Assembly: GCA_021513695.1 (NCBI GenBank)
Contig: CP084166.1
Coordinates: 448,001 to 512,000 of the forward strand
Direction: 5' to 3'
From: Candidatus Heimdallarchaeum aukensis
Lineage (GTDB): Archaea > Asgardarchaeota > Heimdallarchaeia > Heimdallarchaeales > Heimdallarchaeaceae
Length of the DNA: 64,000 nt
The notes under the pieces are model-generated. The model did no database searches and was not told where the DNA came from. It saw only the letters and a program-made list of their open reading frames with translations. Each line of letters starts with the position of its first letter. The stretch's first letter is position 1. Below, piece after piece: positions 28,701 through 51,043 of this stretch. The position numbers were made by a program, and so were the translations under genes.

Positions 28701-30244
28701 AAAGAATAAACATAACCGCTTGTAGTTTTTGACCAAGAAAATAAAGTTGAATAATAATTAATAAAAGAGTTATAGCGACTGTTACTTGTATTATAGTTAG
28801 TTGTTTTCCAATCAAAAACATTATCACAGCTAATTTGAGCAGCTAAAATATAACCATAATAATCTGAATAGTATAAATATTTGCCTTGAATAGTAATTAT
28901 TCTGTTTAAATATAAATAACCTGATAATATTGCTTCATTCGTGGATGAAGAATAAAAATGCTTTGCATAAACATTTGAAGAGGAACAATATAGTAATTCC
29001 CAATTATAATCATTGTCCACATCGGTAAGTATAGGTTCTTCTTGAATATTTAGACCTAAGGAACTACTATACTCATTTAATATCTCTCCGGTGAAAGAAA
29101 AACTTTTTTGTTCTCCGTTTGTTGATAGAGTAACTATTTCATACTCTCTATCCCAATTAATATCAACAATTATAGGACCTAACCACTCTGAATCACCTGA
29201 AGAAGTAAGCCAAGAATGAATAGTAGTACCATTATTTGATAAAAGATAAAGATTTCTTCCTGCAGGGCAAACAATGTCTATTTTACTGTCTTTGTTGATG
29301 TCTGCAACTGCAAGAGGATGAGTAATAGGCTCTGTTAAATCTTTAGGAAAATTTGAGATGATGTCTCCATTTCCTTTCCACGCGTAAACTTTTCCATCGG
29401 TACTACCTACAATAACATCTTTGGAACCATCATTGTCTACATCAGCTAAAACTGGTGCAACTATTACTTCTCCTCCTGTTGTTTTAGGCCAACCAGCTAA
29501 AAGATTTCCACTTCCATCAAATGCATAAACTTTTGAACTGTTAGATCCAACCACTATCTCATTTTTATCGTCTCCATTAATATCTCCAACTGCTAATGTT
29601 TCTTCTACTGGTCCCTCACAATTGACTGGCCAACCTGGTATACTAGTACCATCACCGTAAAATGCGTAAACCGAACCATTAGCTGCTCCTATAATTATTT
29701 CTTCAGTTGCACTATTTCCATCTATATTAGCTAACATTGGTGTAGATATTAAAGCAACACCTATGTTTTTTCCATCTATCCAATTTGAAGATTCTGTACC
29801 ATCTATCTCGTAAACTCTTATTATGCCATTTAACGTTCCTACAACAATTTCATAATTTCCATCTCCGTCTATATCCCCTGCTCCAGGTCCTCCTTTTAAC
29901 TCTCCCCCTACATATATTGGCCAACTACCAAAAGAATTGAGAGATTGAGAGATTTTTTTACCTGAAAAATTGTTATCTAAAAGTTCAGAACGGGAAGAAG
30001 TTGTTTTGATCTCTATGTCGTTGTTCGCTTCTTCAACTCTTTGTAAATCTGTGTGATAATCATTATTTTGACTTACATTATTTTGACTTACATTACTTTG
30101 TTGTGAATCTAAAATGATATTATTAAAATCTTTCATCACTAGAGAATTTGTAGTCATTGAACTTGTAATTATAATTAGTAATGCTACTACCATTCCTGAA
30201 TATTTTGATTTCCCTCTAAAACTTTTTTTTATTCGTTTCATCAT
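25796..30244 (-). CDS. giant integrin-like surface protein: signal peptide, FG-GAP/beta-propeller repeats, TSP3-like Asp-rich Ca-binding repeats, single TM helix, ~150-aa cytoplasmic tail
   Basis: Repeated …ADVDGD(S/L)xLEIIAGY…GGVVIWNSDG(T/S)VVPGWPKTTSG… FG-GAP-like units. Repeated DTDSDGL(D/T)D…E modules. TM ILTIISIVTGAVIVTGAVAFLTFIGI followed by a basic/charged tail. Confidence 0.7.
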   Translation of the reverse strand: MMKRIKKSFRGKSKYSGMVVALLIIITSSMTTNSLVMKDFNNIILDSQQSNVSQNNVSQNNDYHTDLQRVEEANNDIEIKTTSSRSELLDNNFSGKKISQSLNSFGSWPIYVGGELKGGPGAGDIDGDGNYEIVVGTLNGIIRVYEIDGTESSNWIDGKNIGVALISTPMLANIDGNSATEEIIIGAANGSVYAFYGDGTSIPGWPVNCEGPVEETLAVGDINGDDKNEIVVGSNSSKVYAFDGSGNLLAGWPKTTGGEVIVAPVLADVDNDGSKDVIVGSTDGKVYAWKGNGDIISNFPKDLTEPITHPLAVADINKDSKIDIVCPAGRNLYLLSNNGTTIHSWLTSSGDSEWLGPIIVDINWDREYEIVTLSTNGEQKSFSFTGEILNEYSSSLGLNIQEEPILTDVDNDYNWELLYCSSSNVYAKHFYSSSTNEAILSGYLYLNRIITIQGKYLYYSDYYGYILAAQISCDNVFDWKTTNYNTSNSRYNSFINYYSTLFSWSKTTSGYVYSLAVGDVDGDSELEILAGYYGGVVIWNSDGTVIPGWPKTTSGDVYSLALADVDGDLKLEIVAGGGYVDDGGVVIWNSDGSVVAGWPKTTSGYVYSLALADVDGDSELEIIAGYRDAGYGGVVIWNSDGSVVAGWPKTTSGYVYSLAVADVDDDSTLEIIAGYGGGVIIWNSDGTVVPGWPKTSDDVRSLAVADVDDDLTLEIIAGYGGGVVIWNSDGSVVAGWPKTTSGYVYSLAVADVDDDSTLEIIAGYGEYYSGGVIIWNSDGTVVPGWPQTTSETSGEVHSLTIADVDNDSALEIIAGYRIDFGGGVVIWNSDGTVVPGWPKTTSGTFWSLAVADVDNDSSLEILAGYGDVSNMGVSIWNSIGLGYAPLYTDSVNNQRTGEYLDTDNDGLFDHEEEILGTDMSKVDTDSDGLDDFDEVVNYSTDPTTSDTDSDGLDDFSEINVYSTDPTTSNTDSDGLTDGEEVNTYGTDPLVSDTDEDGMPDGYEVHSGLDPLTDDSNSDLDGDGLTNLEEFNVGTFANSTDTDGDLMDDLWEVQTGTNAIVNDSNSDFDNDNLSNFEEYTLGTFANNSDTDEDGMPDGYEVHSGLDPLTDDSNSDLDGDGLTNLEEFNVGTFANSTDTDGDLMDDLWEVQTGTNAIVNDSNSDFDNDNLSNFEEYTLGTFANNSDTDEDGMPDGYEVHSGLDPLTDDSNSDLDGDGLTNLEEFNVGTFANSTDTDNDGLTDYEEIKEYFTNPTSSDSDSDGLTDYEEVKIYRTDPNNSDTDGDGENDGKEIENGFDPLNPKSNLEHKLKVKRILTIISIVTGAVIVTGAVAFLTFIGIRLYLRKRASSFGFSSIKEMYTAMKLGFKTKSEWEEISAQGYKTKSEYMKALKREEDYKTLINLLNQFKPNISVTLQRISELSGLSKSVVEEYLKDILQANPDIGEYYELEQSFVRKETIDIDNEIDRLLSQYRDWEIIGEGKKKE
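26551..27270. repeat. near-perfect tandem repeat, 288-bp unit x ~2.5 copies, inside the integrin-like gene
   Basis: Units begin at 26551, 26839 and 27127 (cagtactattagcaaacgtaccaacattaaattcttcaag…) and are identical over hundreds of bp. Encodes 96-aa repeat DTDEDGMPDGYEVHSGLDPLTDDSNSDLDGDGLTNLEEFNVGTFANSTDTDGDLMDDLWEVQTGTNAIVNDSNSDFDNDNLSNFEEYTLGTFANNS. Confidence 0.9.
27700..28760. repeat. degenerate tandem repeats (~135-160 bp) encoding FG-GAP-like blades
   Basis: Recurring ggccaaccag(g/c)aa(c/t)aaca(g/c)taccatcactattccaaataa(c/t)(c/t)actccacc at ~27728, 27888, 28031, 28170, 28303, 28441, 28597. Confidence 0.7.
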
Positions 30245-30491: not shown

Positions 30492-31616
30492 ATGATTTCT
30501 TATTACTCTATAGGTTTATTCTTATTTGAGCAACTTACTTTTATTACTAGCAGCATTATTTTGTTTAGAACTTACAAGCAGACTCGCTTTCTTTCTCACT
30601 TCCTTTTGGGTACTAGCTATCTTTTGTGGGTTTTCAATTCTATAGGAAGATTCATTACTTCTTTTTTCAGTGAAAATGTAATAATCTTCGACAATACTCG
30701 ACTTATTTCACTTATTTGGATCATTGTTAACTGTTTGTTAATTCTTGGAATGATTTTCGTTTTCTATTCTTTTATTTATTTCAAGACTAACAGATTACAT
30801 CCTATAATAAACATAGTTAGTTTTTTAGGAGGAGCATTATTTCTTGCATTTATAATACCTGATTTCACTGAATTGACTTACTCTGAACAACTTGGAGCTT
30901 GGTCTGCGAAATATAGTATTTGGATATCTGTTCTTGTTATTCCAATGCTTTTATTCTTCATTTTTTCTTTTATTCTTCCCATTTCTACAAAAATTGTTAG
31001 AACTACTGACAAAGATATTCGTAAGCAACTATTTGTGCAGATAGTCGGACTTATTATCGTAATTATCTGGGCATTTTTCGCTGGTTTTACTAGCAATGCT
31101 GTTCTTCGAGCTGTTCGTCCTTTCCTTATGGCAACAGGCTGGTTTATCTGGTCTTTAACTTTGATAATGGATCCTTTCAACATAATGATTTCTAACGCTA
31201 AAATTAGTCAATTATTGATTACAACTACTAGCGGTTTACCAATCTATTATGATGACTTCACTTTTGATGAAAAAGAAGTAAAAAGTGAGATTTCTGCAGA
31301 TCTAGCTTCAGGTTTAATTTCAGGAGTTACCCAAGCTCTAGAGCAAATAATGGAAAGAAAATCGGAATTAAACACTGTAGTATATAAAGACAAAGTTATA
31401 GGTACTACTGCAGTAGGCTATCTTCAAGCATATATTTTTGGAGAAAGATTTGATAAAACTTTAGAAACTGTATTAAATGTTCTTCTAAGAGAAATACAAG
31501 ATAATCCAGCTCTTGCTTTAAAAATCACTCCCAACTTTGTAGATCTAGATGGGGCTTCAGGAAAAATCTTGAAACTCATAGTTGAAAAAAATCTAAAGAG
31601 AATATTAGTAATTTAA
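30492..31616 (+). CDS. membrane protein (N-terminal ~7 TM helices) with C-terminal soluble domain, unknown function
   Basis: Hydrophobic N-terminal two-thirds. C-terminal ~130 aa predicted soluble (…GLISGVTQALEQIMERKSELNTVVYKDKVIGTTAVGYLQAYIF…). Confidence 0.4.
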   Translation: MISYYSIGLFLFEQLTFITSSIILFRTYKQTRFLSHFLLGTSYLLWVFNSIGRFITSFFSENVIIFDNTRLISLIWIIVNCLLILGMIFVFYSFIYFKTNRLHPIINIVSFLGGALFLAFIIPDFTELTYSEQLGAWSAKYSIWISVLVIPMLLFFIFSFILPISTKIVRTTDKDIRKQLFVQIVGLIIVIIWAFFAGFTSNAVLRAVRPFLMATGWFIWSLTLIMDPFNIMISNAKISQLLITTTSGLPIYYDDFTFDEKEVKSEISADLASGLISGVTQALEQIMERKSELNTVVYKDKVIGTTAVGYLQAYIFGERFDKTLETVLNVLLREIQDNPALALKITPNFVDLDGASGKILKLIVEKNLKRILVI

Positions 31617-31774
31617 TTAATTTGCATTCTTTTCTTCCTTTTTCTTTCTTATGTTCTATATTTAGCTTTTATTATACTAGGTAAATATACGAAACTATCA
31701 TATCTTTTAATATAAGTTCAAAATAGTTGATTAATAGGAAATAAACTTTTAAATAACCAATTTTAGAAATAAAT

Positions 31775-32503
31775 ATGATTGCACCAACTATTGATTCTTT
31801 ATGGTCTGCAGCTTTGGGATATTTTTTTGGTTCAATACCCTTATCTTTTATAATCGTCAAAGTTTTTCTTGACGGGTTAGATATTCGAACAGTTGGATCA
31901 AAAAATGTCGGTGGAAGAAATGTTATTAGATCTTTCAAGTATAAAGGAAAGTCAAATAATGTTGCTTATACTATGGGGTTAATTGTAGCTATCTTTGATA
32001 TATTGAAAGGATACTTTGCTATGTGGCTGTCACAGTATCTATCTTACAATTTTGGAAATAATGACCCTTGGAGCATTTGCTTTGCAGGTATTTTTGCTAT
32101 ACTTGGACATAATTGGCCAATATGGTTATTAAGTCATGGTGGAAGAGGAGTAGCAACAACTCTTGGTAATTTGATGTTTTTCAATCCTATCTTCTTTTTA
32201 ATATGGCTAGCAACGTTTTTCTTACTCAGTTTTCCTCTTATGTATTCAGCTATCGTTTACATCACTAGTTTTATAGTTATGGGAGTTATTCTATACTTCT
32301 GGCCCTGGTATGTAAGTCCGATGGTAACAGAACTGAAAAACGACCCCAATCTAGGTTTTTTATCAATGATAATGCTTTTCGGTATAACTCTTGTTGTTCT
32401 TTCGCGTCAAAAATCTAATTTCATGAAAATAAAGAATGGTGAAGCAAAAAGAATGAAATTATGGAAAATATTCCAAGGAAAGGCAGATGAAGCCTTAAAA
32501 TAA
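31775..32503 (+). CDS. plsY: glycerol-3-phosphate acyltransferase PlsY-like (acyl-phosphate:G3P acyltransferase family)
   Basis: GYFFGSIPLSFII…DIRTVGSKNVGGRNVIRSF matches the bacterial PlsY N-terminal signature (…CGSIS…DPRTSGSGNPGATNVLR…). ILKGYFAMW matches VLKG…W. AILGHNWPIWL…GGRGVATTLG matches LGHIWP…GGKGVAT. Confidence 0.7.
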   Translation: MIAPTIDSLWSAALGYFFGSIPLSFIIVKVFLDGLDIRTVGSKNVGGRNVIRSFKYKGKSNNVAYTMGLIVAIFDILKGYFAMWLSQYLSYNFGNNDPWSICFAGIFAILGHNWPIWLLSHGGRGVATTLGNLMFFNPIFFLIWLATFFLLSFPLMYSAIVYITSFIVMGVILYFWPWYVSPMVTELKNDPNLGFLSMIMLFGITLVVLSRQKSNFMKIKNGEAKRMKLWKIFQGKADEALK

Positions 32504-32541
32504 ATTCTTTCTTTCTTTTTCTATCTTTTTAACAATTTTTT

Positions 32542-33288
32542 CTATTTTAGTTCTATTAATTCAGAGGATTCTATTTCTAGCGAAAGAGTCTCTTTTTCAT
32601 TTTGTATCTTTAAAAGTCCATTATCCTCAATTCCTTCTACTGTATATTCTTGATTTTTGTAGATAATATTATTTTTGCACAATATATCATAAGAATTAAA
32701 TTCCTTCAAGATTTCTTTAAGATTGTTTTTTAGAACCTTGATAATATAGTTTTTAATTTGCTTATGCAATTCTTTTGTTAATTTCTCATTATCTACTTTT
32801 ATTTTCAAGGATTCATTTATTGAAATAGCTATAGAATTGACTGGAGAGTCTAAAGAAAGAACTTTGTTATTTGTATTTATTCCTATTCCAACGAGTAGAA
32901 AATTACAATTTGTATCTTTCACTGTATCAATTAAAATTCCGCCTAACTTTCTTTTTTCTAGAATTATATCATTTGGCCATTTAATTTTAACAGGTATAGA
33001 CAGAATTGTTTCTATTGCTTTTCTTACTCCTAAAGCAATAGAATAATGAAGAAAAGCATATTGTTTTTGATTTATTTCTTCTTTTTTACAAAAAACAAAC
33101 GTTCCCCACCAACCTCCTTTTGGAGAAAACCATTTACTCTGTTTTCTTCCAATACTTGCAGATTGTTCCTCTGCTATTATTAACAAATCTTCATTTTTTG
33201 CTAATTCTAAATAAGACAAAGCTACATTTTGAGTGGAAGGAACAGATTGAAAATGAATGATTTTCAAGGAAAAGGATTCTTGAGCCAT
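32542..33288 (-). CDS. birA: biotin--protein ligase (BirA catalytic domain, no HTH)
   Basis: SIGRKQSKWFSPKGG (GRxGRxWxSPxG biotinyl-AMP loop) and KWPNDI motif. Confidence 0.75.
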   Translation of the reverse strand: MAQESFSLKIIHFQSVPSTQNVALSYLELAKNEDLLIIAEEQSASIGRKQSKWFSPKGGWWGTFVFCKKEEINQKQYAFLHYSIALGVRKAIETILSIPVKIKWPNDIILEKRKLGGILIDTVKDTNCNFLLVGIGINTNNKVLSLDSPVNSIAISINESLKIKVDNEKLTKELHKQIKNYIIKVLKNNLKEILKEFNSYDILCKNNIIYKNQEYTVEGIEDNGLLKIQNEKETLSLEIESSELIELK

Positions 33289-33401
33289 TATTTTCGTCGA
33301 AAAACACTTTTATTTAAACTTTTTTTTGTTTTATCAAGATAAAATTATTTAATCATAAAAACAAATTGGGTTTTTAAAAGACCTTTTTTTCTTTAAACTT
33401 A

Positions 33402-34976
33402 ATGGCTCGTATTACTCATATTGGACATGATAAAGGAATTTTGGAAGAAAAAAGACAAACAATACTTTCACTAAGAGAAAAGTCTCTAAAAGGTGGGGGA
33501 GAGGAAAAAATAGCCAGTCAACACAATAAAGGAAAGCTTACTGCGAGAGAGAGAATAGAATTATTGGTTGACGAAAATTCTTTTTGCGAAATAGATCAAA
33601 TAAGAAAATCTCAACATTCTGAATTAGAAATGGAAAAAATAGAAGGAGACGGTGTAGTAACAGGTTATGCAACTATTAATGGTAGACGAGTCTTTATTTA
33701 TAGTCAAGATTTTACCGTTTTGGGAGGAAGTTTAGGAAAAACTCACGCAAAAAAAATTTGTAAAGTTATGGATCTTGCTCTTCAGAGTGGGTGTCCTATA
33801 ATAGGGTTACTTGACTCTGGAGGAGCAAGAATTCAAGAAGGAATAGATTCTCTAGCTGGTTATGGTGAAATATTTTATAGAAATGTAATGAGTTCAGGGG
33901 TAATTCCCCAAGTTTCTATTATTTTGGGTCCTTGTGCTGGAGGAGCGGTCTATTCTCCTGCCCTAACTGATTTTATTATTATGAATCAAATTAATTCATT
34001 TATGTTTGTTACTGGCCCTCAAGTTGTTAAGACAGTTACCGGTGAAGATGTTTCATTCTATGATTTAGGAGGAAGTGAAGTACATAGTTCACTTAGCGGA
34101 GTAAGTCATTTAGTAGGAGAAGATGAAGAGGAAACGATAAATTTAGCTAAGAGACTCTTATCTTACCTTCCATCGAACAATTTAGATGACCCTCCACAAG
34201 AAATAGATGATATCGAAGAAAATGATCAAGATATTCTTTCTGATATTATTCCTGAGCAGGAAAATGAACCTTATGATATGAAAAAAGTAGTTGAAACAGT
34301 TTTAGACCAAGACAGTTTCTTTGAATTACAAGAAAATTGGGCAAAAAACATTATTGTTGGTTTCGGAAGATTAGAAGGTTTAACTGTCGGTATTATTGCA
34401 AACCAACCTTTATTTCTTGGAGGAGCTATAGAATATAATGCTGCGGATAAAGCAGCAAGATTTATTCGTTTTTGTGATTCATTTAACATCCCTATAATTA
34501 CTTTTGTTGATGTACCTGGTTTTATGCCAGGATTAAAACAAGAGGAAGAAGGAATAATTCGTCATGGAGCTAAAATGCTTTTTGCTTATTCAGAAGCTAC
34601 TGTCCCAAAACTTGCAGTAATAACAAGAAAAGCTTATGGAGGAGCTTATATTGTTATGAGCTCAAAGCATTTAGGAGCTGATATTAATTTTGCTTGGCCT
34701 ACAGCAGAAATAGCTGTCATGGGGGCAGAGGGAGCTTGTAATATTATTTATAGAAAAGAACTGAAAAAAGCTGAAAATCCAGAACAAGCTTTGCAAGATT
34801 TTGTTGTAAAATACAAAAAACAGTTCAGCAATCCTATTCGAGCAGCTGAGAAAGGATATGTTGACAAAGTTATTTTGCCTGAAGAAACAAGAATTGAACT
34901 TTCTAATGCCTTGAAATTTTTACAAAATAAAAGGATAGATACCCCGAAAAGAAAACACGGGAATATTCCACTTTAA
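33402..34976 (+). CDS. acyl-CoA carboxylase carboxyltransferase subunit (PccB/AccD family; alternatively the alpha subunit of a biotin-dependent decarboxylase/transcarboxylase)
   Basis: Full-length two-domain carboxyltransferase pattern (…GGSLGKTHAKKICKVMDLA…, …GPCAGGAVYSPALTDF…, …AYGGAYIVMSSKHLGAD…). Confidence 0.85.
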   Translation: MARITHIGHDKGILEEKRQTILSLREKSLKGGGEEKIASQHNKGKLTARERIELLVDENSFCEIDQIRKSQHSELEMEKIEGDGVVTGYATINGRRVFIYSQDFTVLGGSLGKTHAKKICKVMDLALQSGCPIIGLLDSGGARIQEGIDSLAGYGEIFYRNVMSSGVIPQVSIILGPCAGGAVYSPALTDFIIMNQINSFMFVTGPQVVKTVTGEDVSFYDLGGSEVHSSLSGVSHLVGEDEEETINLAKRLLSYLPSNNLDDPPQEIDDIEENDQDILSDIIPEQENEPYDMKKVVETVLDQDSFFELQENWAKNIIVGFGRLEGLTVGIIANQPLFLGGAIEYNAADKAARFIRFCDSFNIPIITFVDVPGFMPGLKQEEEGIIRHGAKMLFAYSEATVPKLAVITRKAYGGAYIVMSSKHLGADINFAWPTAEIAVMGAEGACNIIYRKELKKAENPEQALQDFVVKYKKQFSNPIRAAEKGYVDKVILPEETRIELSNALKFLQNKRIDTPKRKHGNIPL

Positions 34977-34997
34977 AATTATTAAGAGGAGAATTTT

Positions 34998-37900
34998 ATG
35001 AAAACTCTAAAAGAACTAAAAAATGAACTACAAATTAAATATCCAATTTTTGGATATAATCCTATCGGACTTGCTGATCCCACGTTAGCTATTGAAATCT
35101 CCAAACTTGGAGGAGTGGGATTAATTAACACTATTGGACTTGAACAAGAAGAACTAACTAAGATTCTTGATCAATGCGAACTTAATCTACCCACACAACT
35201 ATGGGGAATAAGGATTAACGATCTTTCTCACATTAAATGGATTAATCATGAACGAAGTATTCCAATCGTTATCCTACCGGAGAAACCTACAAGATTACAA
35301 CTGGATAAACTGCGTAAAATAAGTAAATTTATTGTCGCTGAAGTTTTATTTGTTGAAGAAGCAAAAAGTCATCTTGAATGGTCAGATTTCTTTTTAGTTA
35401 AAGGTATTGAAGCAGGAGGAAAAGTTGGTACAAAAGCTTCTTTTATTCAGATTCAAGAGTTTTATGAAACTGGATGGCCTTTTATCATTCAAGGAGGAAT
35501 GGGTGCTTTTAATATTAGTTCTGCTCTAATAGGAGGAGCAATAGGAGTAGTTTTTGAGGGACAATTATATCAATTTCCTGAATGTCCTCTTTCTGAAGAA
35601 GCGAAAAAGTATCTTGCTTCTTTAGGTGAAAATGATTCTTTCATTATCAATGAAAGTGGTAAAGAAGGTTACAGAATTTCTGGAAAACTAGCTAACAAAG
35701 CAATTAGAGAAATAAAACAACTAGAAGAAGAATCAAGTGAGGAAAAAATACTTGATAGAATTACTGAATTTGAAAAACCTCACGATCAATTTGGTTTTAA
35801 GAGTCAGAACATTAAACACGCATTTTTACCACTAGGTAACGATGTTTTCTTCTCCACATTCTTCAAGAAAAGATTTGGAAATTTAACAAATTTTGTGGAG
35901 CAAGCTCTTAAGATAGCTGATGAACAAATACAGATTGCTCTAAGAAATTGGCCTTTTGCAAAAGGTTCTACTTTATCCAACTTTCTAGGTACAAAATATC
36001 CTATTATTCAAGGCCCTATGGCTAATGTTTCTGATAATGTAGACTTTGCTATTAATGTAGCGAAAAATGGAGCTCTTCCTTTCTTAGCTTTGGGTGGATT
36101 ACTAAAAGAAGAAACTGAGGAGCTTTTTGATAAAGTTAGAGAAAGTGAACTTGTAAAATATTCCTATGGTTGTGGGATTATAGGTTTAGAAGCAGTTAAA
36201 CAAAGGAGAGAAGAGCACCTTTCTTTAATGAGAGATCTTAAACCTCCCTTTGCTTTGATTGCTGCTGGAACAGTTAATTTAGCTAAACAAGTACAAGAAA
36301 TGGGTTTTAAGACTTTATTACACACTCCCGCTCTATCAATGTTTAAAGATTCTATCAAAAATGGAATAGATTTACAAATTTTAGAAGGGAGTGAATGTGG
36401 AGGACATATTGGACTTCTTTCATCTTTTATTTTATGGGAAAGTATTTTGGAATTTTTAGATGAAAATAGAGAACAGATAGAAAAACCTTTGAAAATAGCT
36501 TTTGCAGGAGGGATATCTGACGGCACTAGTTCTGCGATGCTAGCAGTTATGATTGCTAAACATCTAGATATTATAGAATCAGCAATACAGATGGGTACAT
36601 CCTACTTATTTACTGAAGAGATTCTAGAAACAAAGGCTTTAACTGGATTTTATCAAGAACTTCTTCTTAATTCTAACTACACCAGAATTATAGGCTCAAC
36701 AGTAAATACTCGAGCACGAGCTGCTCCTTCACCTTTTGTAGATCAAACAATTAAAAGAGAAAGAGAGAGAATTAGACAAAAAATACCAATAAAAGAAAGA
36801 AAAGAACTTTACGAGAAAGATAATCTAGGAGCTTTAAGAATTGCAGCTAAAGCTGAAAAATGGAATAACGATCATGTTCCTGGTACTGCAACTACACAGT
36901 TTATAAAAATCGATGAAGAGGAACAGAAAAACTTTGGTTGCTTTATGGCTGGAGAAGTAATAGCAAAGAAACGTAGTATTTACAAGATAGATGACCTACA
37001 CTATGATATTTCAGTAATTGGAAAAGAAATCTTAGAAAAGCAATCAACTTCTATTGCTGATTATTTACTTTCAAAAGAAAAACTAGAAGCTTATGTTTCT
37101 AAAGAACAAAGTCCTCTAGTTATAGATAGTACTAATAAAATTGCTATAGTAGGAATAGGTAGTTTCTTCCCTGATGCTCCAAACACAGAAAAATTCTGGG
37201 AAAATATTGTTAACAAACATTATGCTGTAACTGAAGTACCTATTGAAAGATGGGATCCTAAATATTATTATGACGAAGATCGAACCGCTCCAGACAAGAC
37301 TTATACCAAAATTGGAGCGTTTGTAAAAGAATTTAAATTTAAACCTATTCAATTCAAGATTCCTCCTAAAGTAGCTGAAAAGATGGATGAAGTTCAGAAA
37401 TGGTCATTAATTGCTGCAAAAGAAGCTTTAGAAGATGCTGGAATACCCACAGATGGCAAGAAACGCCTACCTATAGGAGTAATTGTAGGCAATGCTTTAG
37501 GTGGAGAAAATCAGAGAATTACTAACAGGAGATTACACTATCCAGAAATTGAAGAACAACTAAAAATTTTATTAAGCTCAAAATTGTCTGATGAGGAAGT
37601 AGAAAAGTTTGTTTCTTCTTTCAAGAAAGAATATCTCAGTAAATACGCAGAGATTACAGAGGATACTATGCCTGGAGAATTATCTAATGTTGTTGCGGGA
37701 AGAATAGCCAATATATTCAATTTATCTGGTAAATCAATGACAACAGATGCTGCATGTGCTTCTTCTCTTGCTGCTCTGGACATTGCGGTAAAAAGTTTGT
37801 TGAATAACGATTTTGATACTATTCTTGTTGGCGGAGCAGATAGATCTATGGATGTTTCTTCTTATGTTAAATTCAGTAAGATCGGTGCTCTTTCTGCAAC

Positions 37901-39518
37901 TGGTTCTCGACCTTTTGATTCCAAGGCAGACGGTTTTGTAATGGGAGAAGGATGTGGTTTTCTTGTCTTGAAGAAATTGAAAAAAGCTATTGAAGACAAT
38001 GACAAAATTTATGCCATAATTGATTCTGTTGGTTCTTCCTCTGATGGTAAAGGAAAAGGAATTACTGCTCCTAATCCTTTAGGACAAAAAGAAGCTATTG
38101 AAAGAGCTCTTGAACAAGCTAAAGTTTCTCCTTCTGAGATAGATTTAATTGAAGCACATGGAACTTCCACCATAGTAGGAGATAAAACAGAAGTTCAAGT
38201 TTTAAATGAGATTTTCACAGAAAAACAAAAAGAAAGAAAAAGGAAAATAGCTCTTGGTTCAATTAAAAGCCAAATTGGTCATTTAAAGAGCGCAGCAGGT
38301 ATAGCTTCTGTTATAAAAGTAGCTTTAGCTCTTGACAAGAAAATTCTTCCACCAACGATAAATGTTCAAGAACTTAATCCTGCGATTGATTGGAATAATT
38401 CTAATCTTTTTGTTAATCTTGATGCTCAACCATGGGAAAAGGTTGATAACTCTATCAGAAGAGCAGGAGTTTCTGCTTTTGGTTTTGGAGGAACAAATTA
38501 TCATACAATCTTGGAAGAATATATTCCAGAAGCACAGTACATAGAAAAAGAAAAGCAACCAATAGTTGAACTAAAAGAACAAAAAGAAGAAGTTTGCTTC
38601 CTTTATACTGGACAAGGAAGTCAATATTTAGGCATGATAAAGGAACTTTATGATAATTATCCAACTGTTAGAAAAACAATAGATGAAGCTTCAGTTATTG
38701 CTAAAGAGAGTTTAAATGCTGATTTGCGTGAAATAATTTTTGGTTCACCTCAACTTTCCAAAGTTGAAAATGAGGAAAGATTAAGACAAACAGAATACAC
38801 TCAACCTTCTCTCTTTGTAGTCGAAGTTGCTTTAACTAGATTATTGAAAGAAAAAGGAATTGAGCCTACAAGAGTAGCTGGACATAGTTTAGGAGAATAT
38901 ACTGCTTTAGTTGCTGCGGGAGTGTTCTCTTTTGAAGATGGATTAAAAGCTGTAATAGAAAGAGGAAAAGCGATGGCAAAAGCTTCTAAAAGTATCCCTG
39001 GAGCAATGGCAGCTATTCTTACATCTCAAGAAAAAGTTAAGGAAATTATAGAAAAGGTAAATGAAGGTTATATAACAGTAGCCAATTATAACTCATTAAA
39101 CCAAACAGTGATTTCGGGAGAAGAAAAAGCTGTAAACAAAGCTATAGAACTTTTCTCTGCAAGAAAAATAAAAGCAATAAAATTAAATGTTTCAACAGCT
39201 TTTCATTCTATTATTGTTAAAGATGCAGAAATAGAAATGGAGAGAGTGCTTAACAGCCTGACTTACAATAAACCTTCAATTCCTGTCTATTCAAATGTAA
39301 CGGGAAGTTTGTACCCTGACAAACCCTCTAAAATTAAAGAACTTCTAATTAATCAGCTCTGTAATTCTGTTCAATGGGTTAAGATTTCAGAAATGGTCAT
39401 TAATTGCTGCAAAAGAAGCTTTAGAAGATGCTGGAATACCCACAGATGGCAAGAAACGCCTACCTATAGGAGTAATTGTAGGCAATGCTTTAGGTGGAGA
39501 AAATCAGAGAATTACTAA
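34998..39518 (+). CDS. type I FAS/PUFA-synthase-like megasynthase, N-terminal part: tandem FabK/PfaD-like (NPD/TIM-barrel, FMN) enoyl-reductase domains, ketosynthase (KS1), acyltransferase (AT); truncated by a frameshift at a tandem-duplication junction
   Basis: YPIIQGPMANVSD and LQILEGSECGGHIG (FabK/nitronate monooxygenase motifs). KS: IAIVGIGSFFPDAP, TDAACASSLAAL (Cys), EAHGTSTIVGDKTE, GSIKSQIGHLKSAAG. AT: FLYTGQGSQYLGM, GHSLGEYTAL. After 39385 the frame runs into copy B of the duplication out of frame and stops at 39518. Confidence 0.8.
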   Translation: MKTLKELKNELQIKYPIFGYNPIGLADPTLAIEISKLGGVGLINTIGLEQEELTKILDQCELNLPTQLWGIRINDLSHIKWINHERSIPIVILPEKPTRLQLDKLRKISKFIVAEVLFVEEAKSHLEWSDFFLVKGIEAGGKVGTKASFIQIQEFYETGWPFIIQGGMGAFNISSALIGGAIGVVFEGQLYQFPECPLSEEAKKYLASLGENDSFIINESGKEGYRISGKLANKAIREIKQLEEESSEEKILDRITEFEKPHDQFGFKSQNIKHAFLPLGNDVFFSTFFKKRFGNLTNFVEQALKIADEQIQIALRNWPFAKGSTLSNFLGTKYPIIQGPMANVSDNVDFAINVAKNGALPFLALGGLLKEETEELFDKVRESELVKYSYGCGIIGLEAVKQRREEHLSLMRDLKPPFALIAAGTVNLAKQVQEMGFKTLLHTPALSMFKDSIKNGIDLQILEGSECGGHIGLLSSFILWESILEFLDENREQIEKPLKIAFAGGISDGTSSAMLAVMIAKHLDIIESAIQMGTSYLFTEEILETKALTGFYQELLLNSNYTRIIGSTVNTRARAAPSPFVDQTIKRERERIRQKIPIKERKELYEKDNLGALRIAAKAEKWNNDHVPGTATTQFIKIDEEEQKNFGCFMAGEVIAKKRSIYKIDDLHYDISVIGKEILEKQSTSIADYLLSKEKLEAYVSKEQSPLVIDSTNKIAIVGIGSFFPDAPNTEKFWENIVNKHYAVTEVPIERWDPKYYYDEDRTAPDKTYTKIGAFVKEFKFKPIQFKIPPKVAEKMDEVQKWSLIAAKEALEDAGIPTDGKKRLPIGVIVGNALGGENQRITNRRLHYPEIEEQLKILLSSKLSDEEVEKFVSSFKKEYLSKYAEITEDTMPGELSNVVAGRIANIFNLSGKSMTTDAACASSLAALDIAVKSLLNNDFDTILVGGADRSMDVSSYVKFSKIGALSATGSRPFDSKADGFVMGEGCGFLVLKKLKKAIEDNDKIYAIIDSVGSSSDGKGKGITAPNPLGQKEAIERALEQAKVSPSEIDLIEAHGTSTIVGDKTEVQVLNEIFTEKQKERKRKIALGSIKSQIGHLKSAAGIASVIKVALALDKKILPPTINVQELNPAIDWNNSNLFVNLDAQPWEKVDNSIRRAGVSAFGFGGTNYHTILEEYIPEAQYIEKEKQPIVELKEQKEEVCFLYTGQGSQYLGMIKELYDNYPTVRKTIDEASVIAKESLNADLREIIFGSPQLSKVENEERLRQTEYTQPSLFVVEVALTRLLKEKGIEPTRVAGHSLGEYTALVAAGVFSFEDGLKAVIERGKAMAKASKSIPGAMAAILTSQEKVKEIIEKVNEGYITVANYNSLNQTVISGEEKAVNKAIELFSARKIKAIKLNVSTAFHSIIVKDAEIEMERVLNSLTYNKPSIPVYSNVTGSLYPDKPSKIKELLINQLCNSVQWVKISEMVINCCKRSFRRCWNTHRWQETPTYRSNCRQCFRWRKSENY

Positions 39519-41378
39519 CAGGAGATTACACTATCCAGAAATTGAAGAACAACTAAAAATTTTATTAAGCTCAAAATTGTCTGATGAGGAAGTAGAAAAG
39601 TTTGTTTCTTCTTTCAAGAAAGAATATCTCAGTAAATACGCAGAGATTACAGAGGATACTATGCCTGGAGAATTATCTAATGTTGTTGCGGGAAGAATAG
39701 CCAATATATTCAATTTATCTGGTAAATCAATGACAACAGATGCTGCATGTGCTTCTTCTCTTGCTGCTCTGGACATTGCGGTAAAAAGTTTGTTGAATAA
39801 CGATTTTGATACTATTCTTGTTGGCGGAGCAGATAGATCTATGGATGTTTCTTCTTATGTTAAATTCAGTAAGATCGGTGCTCTTTCTGCAACTGGTTCT
39901 CGACCTTTTGATTCCAAGGCAGACGGTTTTGTAATGGGAGAAGGATGTGGTTTTCTTGTCTTGAAGAAATTGAAAAAAGCTATTGAAGACAATGACAAAA
40001 TTTATGCCATAATTGATTCTGTTGGTTCTTCCTCTGATGGTAAAGGAAAAGGAATTACTGCTCCTAATCCTTTAGGACAAAAAGAAGCTATTGAAAGAGC
40101 TCTTGAACAAGCTAAAGTTTCTCCTTCTGAGATAGATTTAATTGAAGCACATGGAACTTCCACCATAGTAGGAGATAAAACAGAAGTTCAAGTTTTAAAT
40201 GAGATTTTCACAGAAAAACAAAAAGAAAGAAAAAGGAAAATAGCTCTTGGTTCAATTAAAAGCCAAATTGGTCATTTAAAGAGCGCAGCAGGTATAGCTT
40301 CTGTTATAAAAGTAGCTTTAGCTCTTGACAAGAAAATTCTTCCACCAACGATAAATGTTCAAGAACTTAATCCTGCGATTGATTGGAATAATTCTAATCT
40401 TTTTGTTAATCTTGATGCTCAACCATGGGAAAAGGTTGATAACTCTATCAGAAGAGCAGGAGTTTCTGCTTTTGGTTTTGGAGGAACAAATTATCATACA
40501 ATCTTGGAAGAATATATTCCAGAAGCACAGTACATAGAAAAAGAAAAGCAACCAATAGTTGAACTAAAAGAACAAAAAGAAGAAGTTTGCTTCCTTTATA
40601 CTGGACAAGGAAGTCAATATTTAGGCATGATAAAGGAACTTTATGATAATTATCCAACTGTTAGAAAAACAATAGATGAAGCTTCAGTTATTGCTAAAGA
40701 GAGTTTAAATGCTGATTTGCGTGAAATAATTTTTGGTTCACCTCAACTTTCCAAAGTTGAAAATGAGGAAAGATTAAGACAAACAGAATACACTCAACCT
40801 TCTCTCTTTGTAGTCGAAGTTGCTTTAACTAGATTATTGAAAGAAAAAGGAATTGAGCCTACAAGAGTAGCTGGACATAGTTTAGGAGAATATACTGCTT
40901 TAGTTGCTGCGGGAGTGTTCTCTTTTGAAGATGGATTAAAAGCTGTAATAGAAAGAGGAAAAGCGATGGCAAAAGCTTCTAAAAGTATCCCTGGAGCAAT
41001 GGCAGCTATTCTTACATCTCAAGAAAAAGTTAAGGAAATTATAGAAAAGGTAAATGAAGGTTATATAACAGTAGCCAATTATAACTCATTAAACCAAACA
41101 GTGATTTCGGGAGAAGAAAAAGCTGTAAACAAAGCTATAGAACTTTTCTCTGCAAGAAAAATAAAAGCAATAAAATTAAATGTTTCAACAGCTTTTCATT
41201 CTATTATTGTTAAAGATGCAGAAATAGAAATGGAGAGAGTGCTTAACAGCCTGACTTACAATAAACCTTCAATTCCTGTCTATTCAAATGTAACGGGAAG
41301 TTTGTACCCTGACAAACCCTCTAAAATTAAAGAACTTCTAATTAATCAGCTCTGTAATTCTGTTCAATGGGTTAAGAT
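37393..41378. repeat. perfect direct tandem duplication, 2 x 1993 bp (copy A 37393-39385, copy B 39386-41378) covering most of KS1 and all of AT
   Basis: Identical sequence at an offset of 1993 nt throughout. Duplicate antisense ORFs appear at 37538/39531, 38325/40318, 38362/40355, 38455/40448. 1993 mod 3 = 1. Deleting one copy restores one continuous ~3,515-aa reading frame (34998..47538 minus 1993). Confidence 0.95.
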
Positions 41379-44300
41379 AATTGAAGAGATGTATAACGAT
41401 GGAGGAAGAATTTTTGTAGAAGTAGGACCTAAAAAAGCATTGTACAACTTTGTTAAAGATATTTTAGGTGAAAAAGAAGACATTCAAACTTTTCTTACAT
41501 TAAACCCGAAAGTAGGAGAGTTAAAATCTTTTAATGATACTGTCTCTAAATTAAAAATGAGCAAAAGAAGAGAAACCGAAACCCCAGTTCAAACTAAAGA
41601 AAAAATAGTTTACAAAGAATCAGCACTAGATGTTTTACTTAAAAATAAAGAGATTAACAACTTGGTCTCTAAACCCTATTTCCGTGAGTATTTGAAAGAG
41701 AACAGCAATCTTCTTTCATCTATAATGAAACAAGGTTACGAGCAGTTCTCAAAGTACAGAGAATCATTGGTTATTGCTGAAAAAGCTAAATATTGGGATA
41801 TAAACTTTGATCTTATTGGTGTTACTGGTGTTGGAATTGGTCTCCCAGGAAAGAATAGAGCTGTTTTCTCTGATGATAATTTTGATCTTATTCTCAATGG
41901 AACAAATCTTATCGAATCTGTTGAAGATACAATAAAACAAGAAACTTTAGACAAAAACATCGTTAGGTTAGTTAAATCTCCTGATGGTAATGCAACTTTT
42001 GAAGCAATTGACGATATAAGTAAAGTTATTCAACTTGCAGCACAGATAGGAGAATTAAACTTCAAAGAATTAGGTATAGAAGATAAATTGGCTAAAGCTT
42101 TAGACTCCACTTTTATTATGGCTATAGGTGCAGGACTAGAAGCGTTGAAAGATGCTGGTATTCCTCTTGTTGAAAGCAAAATAGTTACTTCAACTGGAAA
42201 AACTTTGAAAGGGAGCTGGACTTTACCAGAATCCTTACAACATGATACTGGAATAGTTTTTGCTTCTGCTTTTCCCGGATATGATAATTTAGTAGATGAA
42301 GTAACAAGACATCTTGTAGCTAAATTTGAAAACAAAACTAATAAAGAGATTGAGGAGATATTTGAGCAATTAATTAATGTTGTATCAAACCCTGAAGCAA
42401 AAGAAGAGATCTCTAACTGGTTCTTGGAGAAACAATCTCTACTGGAAGAAAAAGAAGAAAAGTATACTTTTAGTAGAGAGTTCCTTTACAAAGTTTTGTC
42501 TATGGGGCACTCTCAATTTGCCCAATTTATTAAAGCTAAAGGTCCGAATACTCAAGTCAATGCTGCTTGTGCTTCTACAACCCAAGCAATTGGTGTAGCA
42601 GAAGATTGGATAAGAACTGGAAGATGTAAGAGAGTAATAGTAATAGCTGGAGACAATGCTGCAAGCAAGAATCTGTTACCTTGGATAGGTGGGGGATTCT
42701 TAGCAGCTGGGGGAGTAACCACAAAAGCCGATGTTAAAGAAGCTGCTTTACCTTTTGGAAAAGAAAGACATGGATTAATTATAGGTTCAGCTTCTGCAGG
42801 TCTTGTAATTGAAAGCAGAGAATCCTATGAAGAAAGAGGAGTTAAACCAATAGTAGACCTTGTGGGTACTTATATGGCAAATAGTGCTTATCATGGTTCT
42901 AGATTAGATGTCAACCATATTTCTGAAGAACTTGAAAGCTTTATTGAAAAAGTAGAAAGAAGATATAATATCGACAGGAAAAATATCGCTAAAGAAGGTA
43001 TTTTTGTCTCTCATGAAACTTATACACCTGCAAGAGGAGGAAGTGCAGAAGCAGAAATTCAATCACTTCTTAATGTTTTCAAAGAAGATGCTTATTCTAT
43101 GACCATAATAAACACAAAAGGATTTACAGGTCATTCAATGGGTGCAGGAATAGAAGAAGCTGTAGCTATTAAAGCAATAGAAAAAGGTAAGATTCCTCCA
43201 ATTGCTAACATAGAGAAACTTGACCCTGCCTTTTCTAAATTTAAGTTCTCAAAAGGAGAAAAGAGAAGATTTTCCTTCGCTTTGAGATTAGCAGCTGGAT
43301 TTGGGTCACAATTAGCTTTTGCTCTCTTCAGGTTAAATACTTACGACAACAGATTCTCTGCCCAATACAATGAATGGCTCAAGAGTCTTGGTGGTGGCAA
43401 AGAAGAGTTATTTGTTGAAGGCAGAGTACTTAAACTCAAAACAGATAATAAGAAAAAACAAGCTGATTTAGTTAAGAAACCAGCAGTACAAAAAACTGTT
43501 GAAAAGAAAATTAAAACTGTTACAAAAGCACCTACAGATATTCTTCAAGTTGTAAAAGATATTATTTCTGAAAAAACAGGTTATGAAACAGAAGTCATTG
43601 AAGAAAATATGCATTTAGAAGAAGATCTTGGGATTGACAGTATTAAAGCAGCAGAAATAATGAACGATATTAGCGATAAATGGTCAATACCTCAAGAAAA
43701 ACTCTTCGAACAATTTGATATCGATACACCAGGAAAAATTGCAAAGTTCATTTCTGAAAACACAAGCGCTCCTGAAGAGACAAGTTATTCAGTTGAAACA
43801 ACTGTAGCAAAAGAGGAAGTAAAAAGAGCAGAAACTTCTAGTGTTTCAACAGGAGATATTTTAGTGCGAATTAAAGAAGTAATTGGAAAACACACAGGTT
43901 ATGACATTCAAGATCTAGATGAAAACTATGACCTAGAAGAAGATCTGGGAATAGATACAGTAAAACAAGCAGAAATTTTTGGAGATTTAAGAGATTTATT
44001 CGGATTGGATTTAGATGAGACTTATGCTTTAGCAGATTATCGAACAATAGCTGACATTGCCCAAGCAATATCTACAGAGAAACCAGTGGAAAAGGTTAAA
44101 CAAGTGGAAACTGAAGAAAGCGGAGAGATTAGAACAGCACAACAACCAACAATCATATCTGAAGCTGAAAGTTCAATTTCCAGAGAAGAAGTTACAAAAG
44201 AAGTGCTTTCAATTATCTCAGAAATTACAGGATACGATACAGAAGATATAGAAATAGAGATGGATCTAGAGGAAGATTTGGGTGTTGATAGTATCAAGAT

Positions 44301-47300
44301 TGCTGAAATTCTAAGCTCTTTGGGAAGTAAGTTCGACCTTGAATTTGATGAGATGTCTGATCTTTCAGGAATTAGAAATACAGAAGATATAGTGGAAGCA
44401 GTGATAAAAATTAAGCAATCCATTGAACAAACTCAAACCCCAACCAAAACAGAAGAACAATTAGCTGTAAGTCAAAAACTTAAAGTTGAACAAGAAGAAG
44501 AAATAGTTATTCGTAGTGTAGAACCTGTTCTAAAGCCTTTAGAACAAAGTGAAGTAAATAAATTTAATCTAGAAGATAAAAATCTCTTACTTCTAGATAT
44601 TCATTCAAAAGAAGCCAAATATATCTATTCTTTACTTGAACAGAAGAAGGCTAAAATTGAGCTTGTTAGGATTAATTCTGAAGACTCAGAAAAACCAAAT
44701 AATAATAAATATGACTTAATCTTAATCTTATTACCAGATGATCACAATTCTGCAAATGATACTAAATACTTTGAGCAACTATTTCTTACCCTACAACAGC
44801 TAGAGTACAATCATAATACTAAGATTGTTTCTTACTCTGTTGAAGACTATTTAGACTCTAAAAAGGAGATAATTCCTTTAAGTGGAGGTATATCCGCTTT
44901 TGTTAAGACTATTGGTCAAGAATTTGAACTAGACATTAAACATGTTTATTCCACAAAACCTGAAGAACTAGTTACAGAGTTGGAAAATTGGGATAAAAAC
45001 CTTGAAGTTATTTATTCAGAGGGTAAAAGATACATTTTCAGTCACATGAGAAAAATACCTCTAGAACAATTACAAAAAGAAAAAATCGAACTTACAGAAG
45101 ATGATCTTATACTTGTTACTGGAGGAGCAAGAGGTATCACTTATGAATGTATTAAAGAACTTACAAAAGATGCTAAACCTTCAATTGCTATCGTTGGTAG
45201 AACTAAACTTCCAGAAGATGTATCTGAATTGCTCTTCTTAACCGACAAAGAAATAGCAAACAAAAAAGAAGAGATAAAAGAAAAACTTGCTCAAGAAAAT
45301 GAAAAAGTTACTCCAGTGATGATAGAAAAAGCTTGGAAACGCTTCCTAAACACTGTTGAAATTGCAAAGAATATTCTCTATTTAATTGAAAATGAAGTGA
45401 ATGCTAACTATTATTCTGCAGATGTTTCAGATGAAGAACAAATGAAAAGTGTTTTGAGTCAAATTGAAGAAGATTTCGAAAAAACTATAACTCTTATTGT
45501 ACATGGTGCGGGAATAGAAGAATCTAAAGCTTTCAAGAAAAAGAAACTAGAAATGGCAAAGAAAATAGTACAAGTAAAGATTTCAGGGTTATACAATATT
45601 CTAAATAATATAGATCAATCTAATTTGAAGAAGATCATCTGCTTTAGCTCAATTGCAGGAAGATTTGGTAATAGAGGACAAGTGGATTATGCTTTTGCAA
45701 ATGGTTATCTAGCTAGAACATGCTGGAAGTTTAAACAACAAGGAATTAACGCTCTAGCTATAGATTGGTCAGCTTGGGCAGATATAGGCATGGCAACACA
45801 AGGTTCTATTCTTAAAGTGCTGAAAGCTGCAGGAATAACTCCCATTCCATTAAAAGAAGGAATAAGAATATTTTCTGAACTAACCAATTACAATGTAGAA
45901 CAAAGTGAATTAATAGTTGCAGGAAAACTTGGACTTCTTCTAAAAGAAATAGAAGATAAAAAAACAAGTGGTCAACACGATACTAGTATGAACACAGAGA
46001 GTTATCCAATGATTGATGAAATTAGAAAAACAGACAACGGTTTTATTGCTTCAAAGACACTAAAATATGATTATGACTTATACATGAGAGATCATCAAAT
46101 CCAAGGATTGCCAATATTTCCTGCAGTAATGGGATTAGAATTCTTCGCTGAGATGTTCAAACTTACAACAGAAAAAGATGTTTACGCAATAGCAGAAGTA
46201 TCGTTTAGAGAAGCAATTAAACAGTTTAAGAACAAAAATGTTGAACTTCAATGTTCATTTGATACAGAAAGAGGGGATATGGAAATTAAAACAATCTTTA
46301 CAGACATTAAAGGAGTTCAAAAAGAAAAGAAACACTTCTTCTGTAAGTCTGTAAAAGATACGACAGAAAAAAGCTATAAGAAAAAGAAGATAGAAAAAAG
46401 AGTGATACCACTACTTTCCAAAGAAGTGATCTATCAGCTTTTCTTCCATGGTCCAAGTTTTCAAGTTTTGGAGAATTTGAATGAGATAAAAGGAAATATC
46501 ATCTCCACTAATGTCCAGATTCCAAATCTGCCTTTATTCAAAGATGAAGAATTGAAAACTATTCTCGTTCCTCGAGCAATAGAAGCGGCTTTACAGACAG
46601 CAGGGTTGTATGACATGTTCATTAACAATGTTGTTTCATTGCCATCAAAAATAAAAAACTTGGAAGTATACAAGGAAACAGAAGCTGTTTTTGCTGAAGC
46701 TGAATTCCTAAAGATAGAGGAAAGACATAGTTTCTTCAATGTAAAGATTTACGATGCTGAAGGAGAAGTAATAATGGTTTTAGAACAACTAGGAATGATA
46801 CATACTTCTATGCCCATAAATTTGGACGAAAAAGGAAAGAAACTCTTCCAGATGATTAAAGGATATCATGAAATAAGAACAAAAGTAGATGACGAAAAAG
46901 TAGCTGTTTTACCTATTCACAAAGTAGTAGAAGAATACAGAAAAAATAGACAAGAACTAGAAAATAAACTAGTTGCTTACGAAAAAACAAGATTTACTAA
47001 AATATCCAACGAAAAAAGAAAAATGGAATATTTAGCGGGAGTAATCCTTGCTAAAGAACTTTTTTCCAAATATGAAAACATTACCGATTTCAGAAGTATA
47101 GAAATAAAAAAGAAGAGTAAGGGGCAACCTTACTTTTTCAACAGACAACTAAAAGAAGAAACGGATTGGTATGTTTCTATTAGTCATTCAAATGATTTCG
47201 CTGTAGTCTCTATTGAGAAACAACCAGTAGGAATAGACATAGAAAAAGTAGAAGAAAGAAGTAAAAGTTTCTATGGCGAAGTTTTTTCAGATTATGAATT

Positions 47301-47538: not shown

Positions 47539-47572
47539 TATGGAGATTAAAAAAAAAAAAAGGTGATAATAT

Positions 47573-48334
47573 ATGTTACAACTGAATTATGATATAAAAT
47601 TTAGAAAGGATTTCATTCATGGAATTCTTTATTTGCCGGATGAAGAGGGGCAGTTCCCTTTAGTTATAAGATTGAACGGTTTTCCGGGCAATTCTCCAGA
47701 AAAAGAAGAACAAAGATTAGCAGATATTATCACCCAGAATAATATGGCTTTTTATGCCTTTGACTATGTAGGAGTAAGAAAAAGTACAGGGACATTTAAT
47801 TATTATACGAGTTTGGAAAACATAAATACTGTTATAACAGATTTATCACATCATCCTCGAATTAATCCTGCAAAGATTGCTCTTCTTGGAGAAAGCTTCG
47901 GAGGAGCAATGGCAATAAGCCAAGGAGTAAGAGACCAAAGAATAAAATGTATTGTTTTAAGGTCTCCTGTATATGATACTGAAGTTATTCCTCAAATACC
48001 GTCTTTTAATACTTTAGTTAAAATATGGTCCAGAAACAATCAAATACGTTTCCCTAAAGGAGACATAAGTGAATTATACTACAAACAAACTAATCTTTAC
48101 AATCCTAAAAAAATAGCAAATTTAGTTAATTGCCCCGTAAAATTGATTGCAGGAGATAAAGATGAGTTGTTGGAAGTTAAGGGTTTTAGAGAACTTTACA
48201 AATGTTTACCACGGAAACTAAGAAAAGGAATTGATATCATTAAAGGAGCAGATCATAACTTTACTAAACAAAAACAGTTTATAGAATTAAAGAGTGAACT
48301 TTCCAGCTTTTTGACTTGTTGCCTTTTAGGGTAA
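47573..48334 (+). CDS. alpha/beta-hydrolase (putative thioesterase/acyl-hydrolase)
   Basis: GESFG nucleophile elbow (GxSxG), later acidic residue in IAGDKDEL and His in GADHNF. GGTGA SD-like element 8 nt upstream. Confidence 0.65.
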   Translation: MLQLNYDIKFRKDFIHGILYLPDEEGQFPLVIRLNGFPGNSPEKEEQRLADIITQNNMAFYAFDYVGVRKSTGTFNYYTSLENINTVITDLSHHPRINPAKIALLGESFGGAMAISQGVRDQRIKCIVLRSPVYDTEVIPQIPSFNTLVKIWSRNNQIRFPKGDISELYYKQTNLYNPKKIANLVNCPVKLIAGDKDELLEVKGFRELYKCLPRKLRKGIDIIKGADHNFTKQKQFIELKSELSSFLTCCLLG

Positions 48335-48346
48335 ATAACTTATGGA

Positions 48347-48838
48347 GTGCAAAAGATGAAGAAAAAAATAATCTACAACAATGAAGAATACATAATAGAA
48401 GCTAAAGGAGAAGACGAGATAGTAGTGAATAATAAGACTTTCAAAGTTAACTTAAAAGAGAAAAACAAGAATTTTTTCAATATAGAAATTCAAGGAAAGA
48501 AGTTTATTATAGAAGTAAGAGAAGGAGAATTCTATTTAGACGGAGAGAAAATAGAAAAATTATCAATTAGCCCCTATTTTCCACAATTAAAGAAACAAAA
48601 ACAAATGATTAACTCTCAAAAAGAAGTAGTAAAAGCACCTATACCAGGAACTATAACTCAAATACTAGTTAAAGAAGGAGATACAGTAAAAAAAGACCAA
48701 GAATTATTTATCCTTGAAGCGATGAAAATGAGAAATAGAATCTTAACAACCATTGACAAAGGTGTAGTAAAAAAAATCTACGTTAGCGAGAATGAAACTG
48801 TATCTCAAGATCAAAAACTAGCTATAATTGAAAATTAA
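48347..48838 (+). CDS. biotinyl-domain protein (biotin carboxyl carrier protein-like)
   Basis: C-terminal biotinyl domain with ILEAMKMRNRI (E-A-M-K-M biotinylation motif). N-terminal ~80 aa atypical (no Ala/Pro linker). Confidence 0.7.
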   Translation: MQKMKKKIIYNNEEYIIEAKGEDEIVVNNKTFKVNLKEKNKNFFNIEIQGKKFIIEVREGEFYLDGEKIEKLSISPYFPQLKKQKQMINSQKEVVKAPIPGTITQILVKEGDTVKKDQELFILEAMKMRNRILTTIDKGVVKKIYVSENETVSQDQKLAIIEN

Positions 48839-49073
48839 ATAAAAAAATAACAAAACAAATTTATTGCAAAAATAATTTAAAATTCGCACAAATATTTGGA
48901 TACTTCTTCTTTTTTAAATTCAAATTTTATCAAAAACTTGAAAAGAATGCTAAATAGTCTATTTTTTAAATAAATAGGAAACAAAAAAAGTTTAGACTAA
49001 GTGGTTAGTTTTTGAAGTATAAATGAGGAGAAATAGGAACTGTATAATTTAAAGAAGAATAAAAAAAATAGGA

Positions 49074-49661: not shown

Positions 49662-49679
49662 TTTATCAAAAGCTTCTTT

Positions 49680-51031: not shown

Positions 51032-51043
51032 ATAACTTATGGA

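Follow-up and report, generated by a model that had tools for sequence, protein, structure and literature searches.

Does Candidatus Heimdallarchaeum aukensis possess a single intact multidomain synthase, or the two halves of a gene that has recently been broken by a duplication? The question is raised by a 64,000-nt stretch of the circularised PM71 genome, described as complete (positions 448,001 to 512,000 of contig CP084166.1, forward strand; hereafter the window, to which all coordinates refer). Here, a long reading frame resembling the PfaA-like fatty-acid/polyketide synthases is interrupted by a perfect head-to-tail repeat with a unit of 1993 bp. The first-pass annotation of the window had placed two explanations side by side without ranking them, namely a fault of assembly and a very recent, real duplication that has just inactivated the synthase. 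Expansion of the repeat during assembly is now favoured by an unbranched short-read graph with a single copy, by relatives with a single copy and by the scaffolding of this genome with Nanopore reads from DNA that had undergone multiple displacement amplification (MDA), whereas a recent inactivating duplication is unsupported as the majority genotype and is conceivable only as a minority variant. We regard it as very likely that the repeat is a false tandem duplication that arose when contigs were scaffolded, or gaps filled, with long reads. The organism itself most likely has the unit once, within a single intact synthase gene for 3515 aa, and the extra copy is most probably absent from its DNA, or at least from the majority genotype.

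The repeat and the reading frames it splits

The 1993-bp repeat is genuinely present in the deposited sequence, and a chance origin is impossible. Direct comparison of copy A (37393-39385, forward strand) with copy B (39386-41378, forward strand) showed identity at 1993/1993 positions, in agreement with the first-pass annotation, and a k-mer scan showed the unit to be the longest exact repeat within the window. The match between the copies is not extendable by even one base on either side, and the junction between the end of A and the start of B (39385|39386; 39356-39415 on the forward strand with 30 nt on each side) consequently has no microhomology (0 bp). The spurious extra copy may equally be A or B. 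Differences between the copies could have pointed to a Nanopore origin, but the unit is without any homopolymer of at least 7 nt, so that polishing to perfection is plausible and the identity of the copies is uninformative either way.

The effect of the repeat on the reading frame follows from its length. The unit is 3 x 664 + 1 nt long (1993 mod 3 = 1) and, as had been pointed out, not a multiple of three. For this reason the first open reading frame (ORF; 34998-39518, forward strand) departs from the native frame where the copies meet, and it stops 133 nt beyond that point, exactly where the first-pass annotation had placed its end, after 44 out-of-frame codons. Its product of 1506 aa is exactly GenBank UJG41226.1 of the 3,081,793-bp contig of Ca. 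H. aukensis and comprises an enoyl reductase (ER; FabK/NMO-like), a ketosynthase (KS) and an acyltransferase (AT), followed by the out-of-frame codons and the stop. The second ORF (39403-47538, forward strand) is deposited as UJG42174.1 with 2711 aa from a GenBank start at ATT 39403. It encodes a truncated KS, an AT, a second KS-like domain similar to a chain-length factor (KS', CLF-like), three acyl carrier protein (ACP) domains, a ketoreductase (KR), a dehydratase (DH) and a phosphopantetheinyl transferase (PPTase). When this ORF is called mechanically in the native frame up to its end at 47538, the first canonical start is at 39577 and the product has 2653 aa. The first-pass annotation had taken 39577 for an internal methionine, and here it has to be corrected, as the codon is TTG, which encodes Leu863 in the intact protein, and an in-frame ATG occurs no earlier than 39661. 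It was right, on the other hand, that about 150 aa of the KS N-terminus are missing, since the Pfam KS domain begins at residue 713 and the second ORF at native residue 863.

Removal of one copy (34998-39385 joined to 41379-47538) yields, as had also been foreseen, an in-frame fusion, and the native gene then runs from 34998 to 47538 on the forward strand as an uninterrupted ORF of 3515 codons. The order of activities in the product is a FabK/NMO-like ER, KS, AT, the second KS-like KS', three ACPs, KR, DH and a 4'-phosphopantetheinyl transferase. Pfam places the KS at residues 713-1123 and the AT at 1201-1500, and further detects three PP-binding domains, KR, PKS_DH_N, the NMO/FabK-like ER and the PPTase, so that the full set of KS, AT, tandem ACPs, KR and DH of PfaA-like synthases is found. 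The closest NCBIfam model is TIGR02813 (omega_3_PfaA), the cut-off of which (1010.1) was not reached by the two fragments when scored separately (648.6 and 836.4 bits). Judged from its domain composition, the intact gene is predicted to encode a PfaA-like fatty-acid/polyketide synthase on a single polypeptide.

Polyketide synthase (PKS) modules evolve by duplication, and the greater part of a KS-AT pair is contained in the unit. One might therefore ask whether a functional module has been duplicated, or whether a programmed frameshift gives rise to a synthase with two KS-AT pairs. The unit corresponds to native residues 799-1462, however, and its borders as placed by Pfam lie inside the KS N-domain (start, residue 799) and inside the AT domain (end, residue 1462) and not at borders between domains and linkers. 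Read-through would accordingly produce a fusion of incomplete AT and KS domains, the +1 frameshift leads to a stop after 44 codons, the copies have not diverged at all and the duplication occurs in no relative. This explanation was rejected on account of the cut domains and the early stop, and it can be given virtually no weight.

Short-read assembly, internal control and relatives

An independent view of the locus is offered by run SRR15988954, of which Logan provides a public de Bruijn assembly of the short reads with k=31. In Logan, singleton k-mers are dropped and the branches of the graph are kept, and each 31-mer is kept once, so that by its design only one copy would appear (PMC12424806). 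The informative point is consequently not that one copy is seen but that the contig in question, L001, is left unbroken. We fetched 13,541 nt of its 13,596 nt, and these correspond to window positions 31436-39385 joined straight to 41379-46969 with 0 mismatches. All of the 31-mers spanning the borders between left flank and unit and between unit and right flank were present in L001 (60/60), and of those spanning the junction 39385|39386 none was present in three fetched short-read contigs, L001 included (0/30). With a junction at normal coverage, two different 31-mers would precede the one that opens the unit, and the contig could not extend beyond 37392+30. No graph branch was found at either 37393 or 39385 in this assembly, an observation that excludes the majority allele only. 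We infer that SRR15988954 is the PM71 Illumina library from the 100% identity over 27.5 kb, from the lack of these proteins in any other Logan sample and from the samples tabulated in the genome paper. At its other end, L001 starts at 31436, inside an ORF at 30492-31616, and no repeat elsewhere in the window accounts for this break, which could be due to strain heterogeneity or to a repeat elsewhere in the genome.

These data bear directly on the possibility that the duplication exists in the organism, is of very recent date and has gone to fixation, the synthase having just been pseudogenised or split into two polypeptides. Such a view would take at face value a genome described as complete, circularised and Pilon-polished in which both fragments are annotated as proteins. 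The k-mer coverage of a fixed junction would nevertheless amount to about half of that of the unit and would force branches at 37393 and 39385, and L001 is unbroken. Moreover, a difference between samples is unlikely since the species is represented by one DNA sample only, and the relatives are all single copy. We therefore hold a fixed duplication to be very improbable.

Whether the Logan graph would reveal a genuine tandem duplication can be judged from a second one, which lies 5.6 kb downstream of the 1993-bp duplication (46995-52388, forward strand; copies 46995-49692 and 49691-52388). Its unit is about 2697 bp, and the copies overlap by 2 bp (TA). Here, L001 ends at 47024, that is at 46994+30, as deduced from the contig size and a gene call that reaches the contig end; a contig of 2699 nt (L003) corresponds exactly to 46995-49692, and the following contig (L004) starts at 52359, that is at 52389-30. 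At either border of the second duplication the Logan contigs thus break with single-base precision, which shows that a well-covered loop junction is retained and visible. The 2.7-kb duplication is read-supported by way of the short-read graph and the 1993-bp duplication is not. The former is probably real in the organism.

The second duplication spans the PPTase end of the synthase, a hydrolase gene, a gene for a biotin carboxyl carrier protein (BCCP) and the 3' part of csm6, and it creates an ORF for a PPTase fragment of 184 aa (49680-50234) and a 195-aa fragment of the Csm6 HEPN domain (49074-49661, minus strand). Its copies differ at two homopolymer sites, with one error per copy relative to the Illumina contig. 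In copy A, A13 is deposited at 47549-47561 where the Illumina contig has A5TA8, the T having been lost. In copy B, A7 is deposited at 51466-51472 instead of A8, and this causes a frameshift in the second BCCP gene (51044-51517, 157 aa), the product of which has an altered C-terminus. These errors fit sequence that was derived from long reads and incompletely polished.

The unit was single-copy in every relative examined. The chromosome of the sister species Ca. H. endolithica PR6 (CP084167.1; L005), with about 93% nucleotide identity, has one unit copy, and its protein UJG44031.1 has 3515 aa, exactly the collapsed length, and is collinear at 95% identity. A metagenome contig from the Joint Genome Institute (JGI; L007) with 95-97% identity likewise carries one unit copy in a gene of 3519 aa, and a 3519-aa protein from a metagenome-assembled genome (MAG) is collinear with the collapsed synthase at 98.4% identity. 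Seven protein orthologues encoded in further assemblies (94.6-98.7% identity) are collinear across one or both borders of the unit. Beyond these, a 601-aa query over the collapsed junction retrieved distant matches only (at most 1050 aa and at most 49% identity), several Asgard MAGs among them, which helped to place the organism but had no bearing on the duplication, and a scan of genome contigs returned PR6 and one unrelated, distant bacterial match but not the PM71 genome itself. The C-terminal 516 aa of the synthase gave no match in a protein-based scan of the JGI metagenome contigs. A 40-nt sequence across the junction of the 1993-bp copies had no exact match in the JGI metagenome contigs either, which is uninformative since the strain is probably not in that collection.

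Origin of the extra copy

The procedure by which the PM71 genome was assembled is capable of yielding a false tandem duplication. Illumina PE150 reads were assembled into contigs with metaSPAdes, the contigs were scaffolded in two iterations of LRScaf with Nanopore reads, and Pilon polishing followed at 346x (Wu et al. 2022, PMC8813620). The Nanopore DNA had been MDA-amplified and, for the high-yield run, additionally PCR-amplified, and identical sequence carried by the chromosome ends was trimmed manually at circularisation (PMC8813620). The sole DNA sample that yielded Ca. H. aukensis is FW4588 (PMC8813620), and a difference between samples was rejected as an explanation of the repeat since a single sample is involved.

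The extra copy most likely entered when metaSPAdes contigs were joined or gap-filled with the amplified Nanopore reads, and this could have happened by either of two plausible routes. The same contig, or the overlapping ends of two contigs, may have been concatenated rather than merged. In the description of LRScaf, contigs with a negative gap are merged, the detail of which is not given (PMC6902338), and a plain failure to merge would for that reason be undocumented behaviour of the program. Alternatively, a gap may have been filled from a chimeric MDA read with a backward jump of 1993 bp, in which case Pilon would later have polished the chimeric fill to Illumina accuracy.

It must be noted that several points weigh against an origin in the assembly. 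The absence of the junction is deduced from the topology of the graph and not from mapped reads, and the link between SRR15988954 and PM71 is itself inferred, the accession being unnamed in the genome paper, its supplements and the searchable literature. Simplification of the Minia type could drop a loop edge with a coverage several-fold below that of its neighbours, which leaves room for a minority variant. A scaffolder should not alter the interior of a contig, so that the end of a metaSPAdes contig must have lain here, and the k=31 graph offers no obvious reason for such an end in the region of the unit. Finally, the neighbouring duplication appears real, and tandem duplication does accordingly occur in this region.

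The loop edge that graph simplification may hide and the support of the short-read graph for the adjacent 2.7-kb duplication, which indicates that such events occur here, both speak for a real duplication in a minority of the cells of the enrichment culture. Its junction would have been carried by the amplified Nanopore reads and written into the consensus by the scaffolder. We nevertheless find this rather unlikely, as a rare allele would have had to supply the linking long reads while none of the junction 31-mers is found in the fetched contigs at 346x Illumina, and as reads of this kind stem more commonly from MDA chimeras. Besides, the junction has no microhomology, and a conserved gene for 3515 aa would be destroyed. 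It is similarly doubtful that a recent duplication in a subpopulation and the 2.7-kb duplication together mark a hot spot of ongoing tandem duplication in the region where the synthase adjoins a CRISPR-Cas locus. If true, one event at the hot spot would have knocked out the only ACP-dependent fatty-acid/polyketide synthase of the lineage.

The evidence for a false duplication consists of the single-copy contig L001, the breaks at the borders of the control duplication, the single-copy relatives, the restored frame of 3515 aa, the borders of the unit in the middle of domains, the lack of microhomology and the zero divergence of the copies, together with the way in which this genome was scaffolded.

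The synthase locus and comparison with known systems

The synthase gene belongs to a cluster (31775-48838) in the order PlsY glycerol-3-phosphate acyltransferase, biotin-protein ligase, acyl-CoA carboxylase carboxyltransferase, synthase, alpha/beta hydrolase and BCCP. The gene order is kept in PR6 and in the JGI metagenome contig, which then continues with a biotin carboxylase. The gene content suggests that ACP-dependent synthesis of fatty acids or polyketides may be coupled to the formation of ester lipids in Heimdallarchaeum. A keyword search of the literature found no paper describing this cluster of synthase, PlsY and carboxylase genes.

Sequence similarity to PR6 and the JGI contig ends about 20-40 nt past the BCCP stop codon. 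At 48876-59569, PM71 carries csm6 and a type III-B Cmr operon (Cmr2/Cas10, Cmr3, Cmr5 and RAMP proteins, minus strand) in place of the biotin carboxylase of the JGI contig, which points to a strain-specific insertion or replacement of the CRISPR-Cas locus beside the synthase cluster. On the other side, intragenic tandem repeats with periods of 288 bp and about 132-147 bp are found at 26547-27274 and 27726-28650 within the gene of a 1482-aa FG-GAP/TSP3-repeat protein (25796-30244, minus strand), and they probably belong to the repeats of this type to which the genome paper refers. Eukaryotic signature genes adjoin in the window, a UFC1-like ubiquitin-fold-modifier conjugating enzyme (1080-1661) and an EAP30/Vps36-like ESCRT-II component (1837-2874), the Pfam matches of which are weak, yet above threshold.

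The PM71 chromosome is among the few Asgard genomes described as complete. As a consequence of the artefact, GenBank and UniProt list a single conserved synthase under UJG41226.1 and UJG42174.1, two separate entries that include a second, spurious KS-AT, and domain counts, pseudogene calls and orthology tables that draw on the current record are wrong at this locus. The synthase stands beside the PlsY and acyl-CoA carboxylase genes and is thereby relevant to the ester-lipid question in archaea related to eukaryotes. The biological interest of the repeat itself is low, and its practical value lies in the correction of a reference Asgard genome, by deletion of 1993 bp, and of two database proteins. 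More generally, where reads are out of reach, a suspected duplication can be tested through the break points of a public k=31 assembly.

False duplications at contig joins and gap fills are a known class of error in scaffolded assemblies, of which Kelley and Salzberg in 2010 and Ko et al. in 2022 reportedly gave examples. The PM71 repeat differs from that class in that a plain failure to merge contigs would be undocumented for LRScaf. The likeness lies in its perfectly identical copies in head-to-tail order, in a junction unsupported by an independent short-read graph and in the conserved ORF that is restored by collapse, and furthermore in a genome that was scaffolded by long reads and had overlapping ends trimmed by hand elsewhere. 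Chimeric reads from MDA, reportedly described by Lasken and Stockwell in 2007, link segments a few kb apart, most of them inverted and at short microhomologies. The PM71 Nanopore DNA was amplified in this way and, in the high-yield run, then by PCR, but at the PM71 junction the orientation is direct and the homology amounts to 0 bp. Spontaneous tandem duplications in prokaryotes arise by RecA-independent joining at little or no homology, and the PM71 repeat resembles them in being head-to-tail, of a few kb and made up of identical copies; the 2.7-kb neighbour with its 2-bp TA overlap looks alike. The junction of the 1993-bp repeat differs from them, however, in that the short-read graph from this population shows no sign of it.

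The predicted synthase, in turn, is most readily compared with the PfaA-type synthases of polyunsaturated fatty acids (PUFA) and the iterative type I PKS, with which it shares KS-AT, a second KS-like domain, tandem ACPs, KR, DH and a FabK-like ER. It differs from them in that the Heimdallarchaeum protein scores below the family cut-off (649 and 836 bits vs 1010), in that all activities, ER and PPTase included, are placed on one chain of 3515 aa, and in that its host is an Asgard archaeon.

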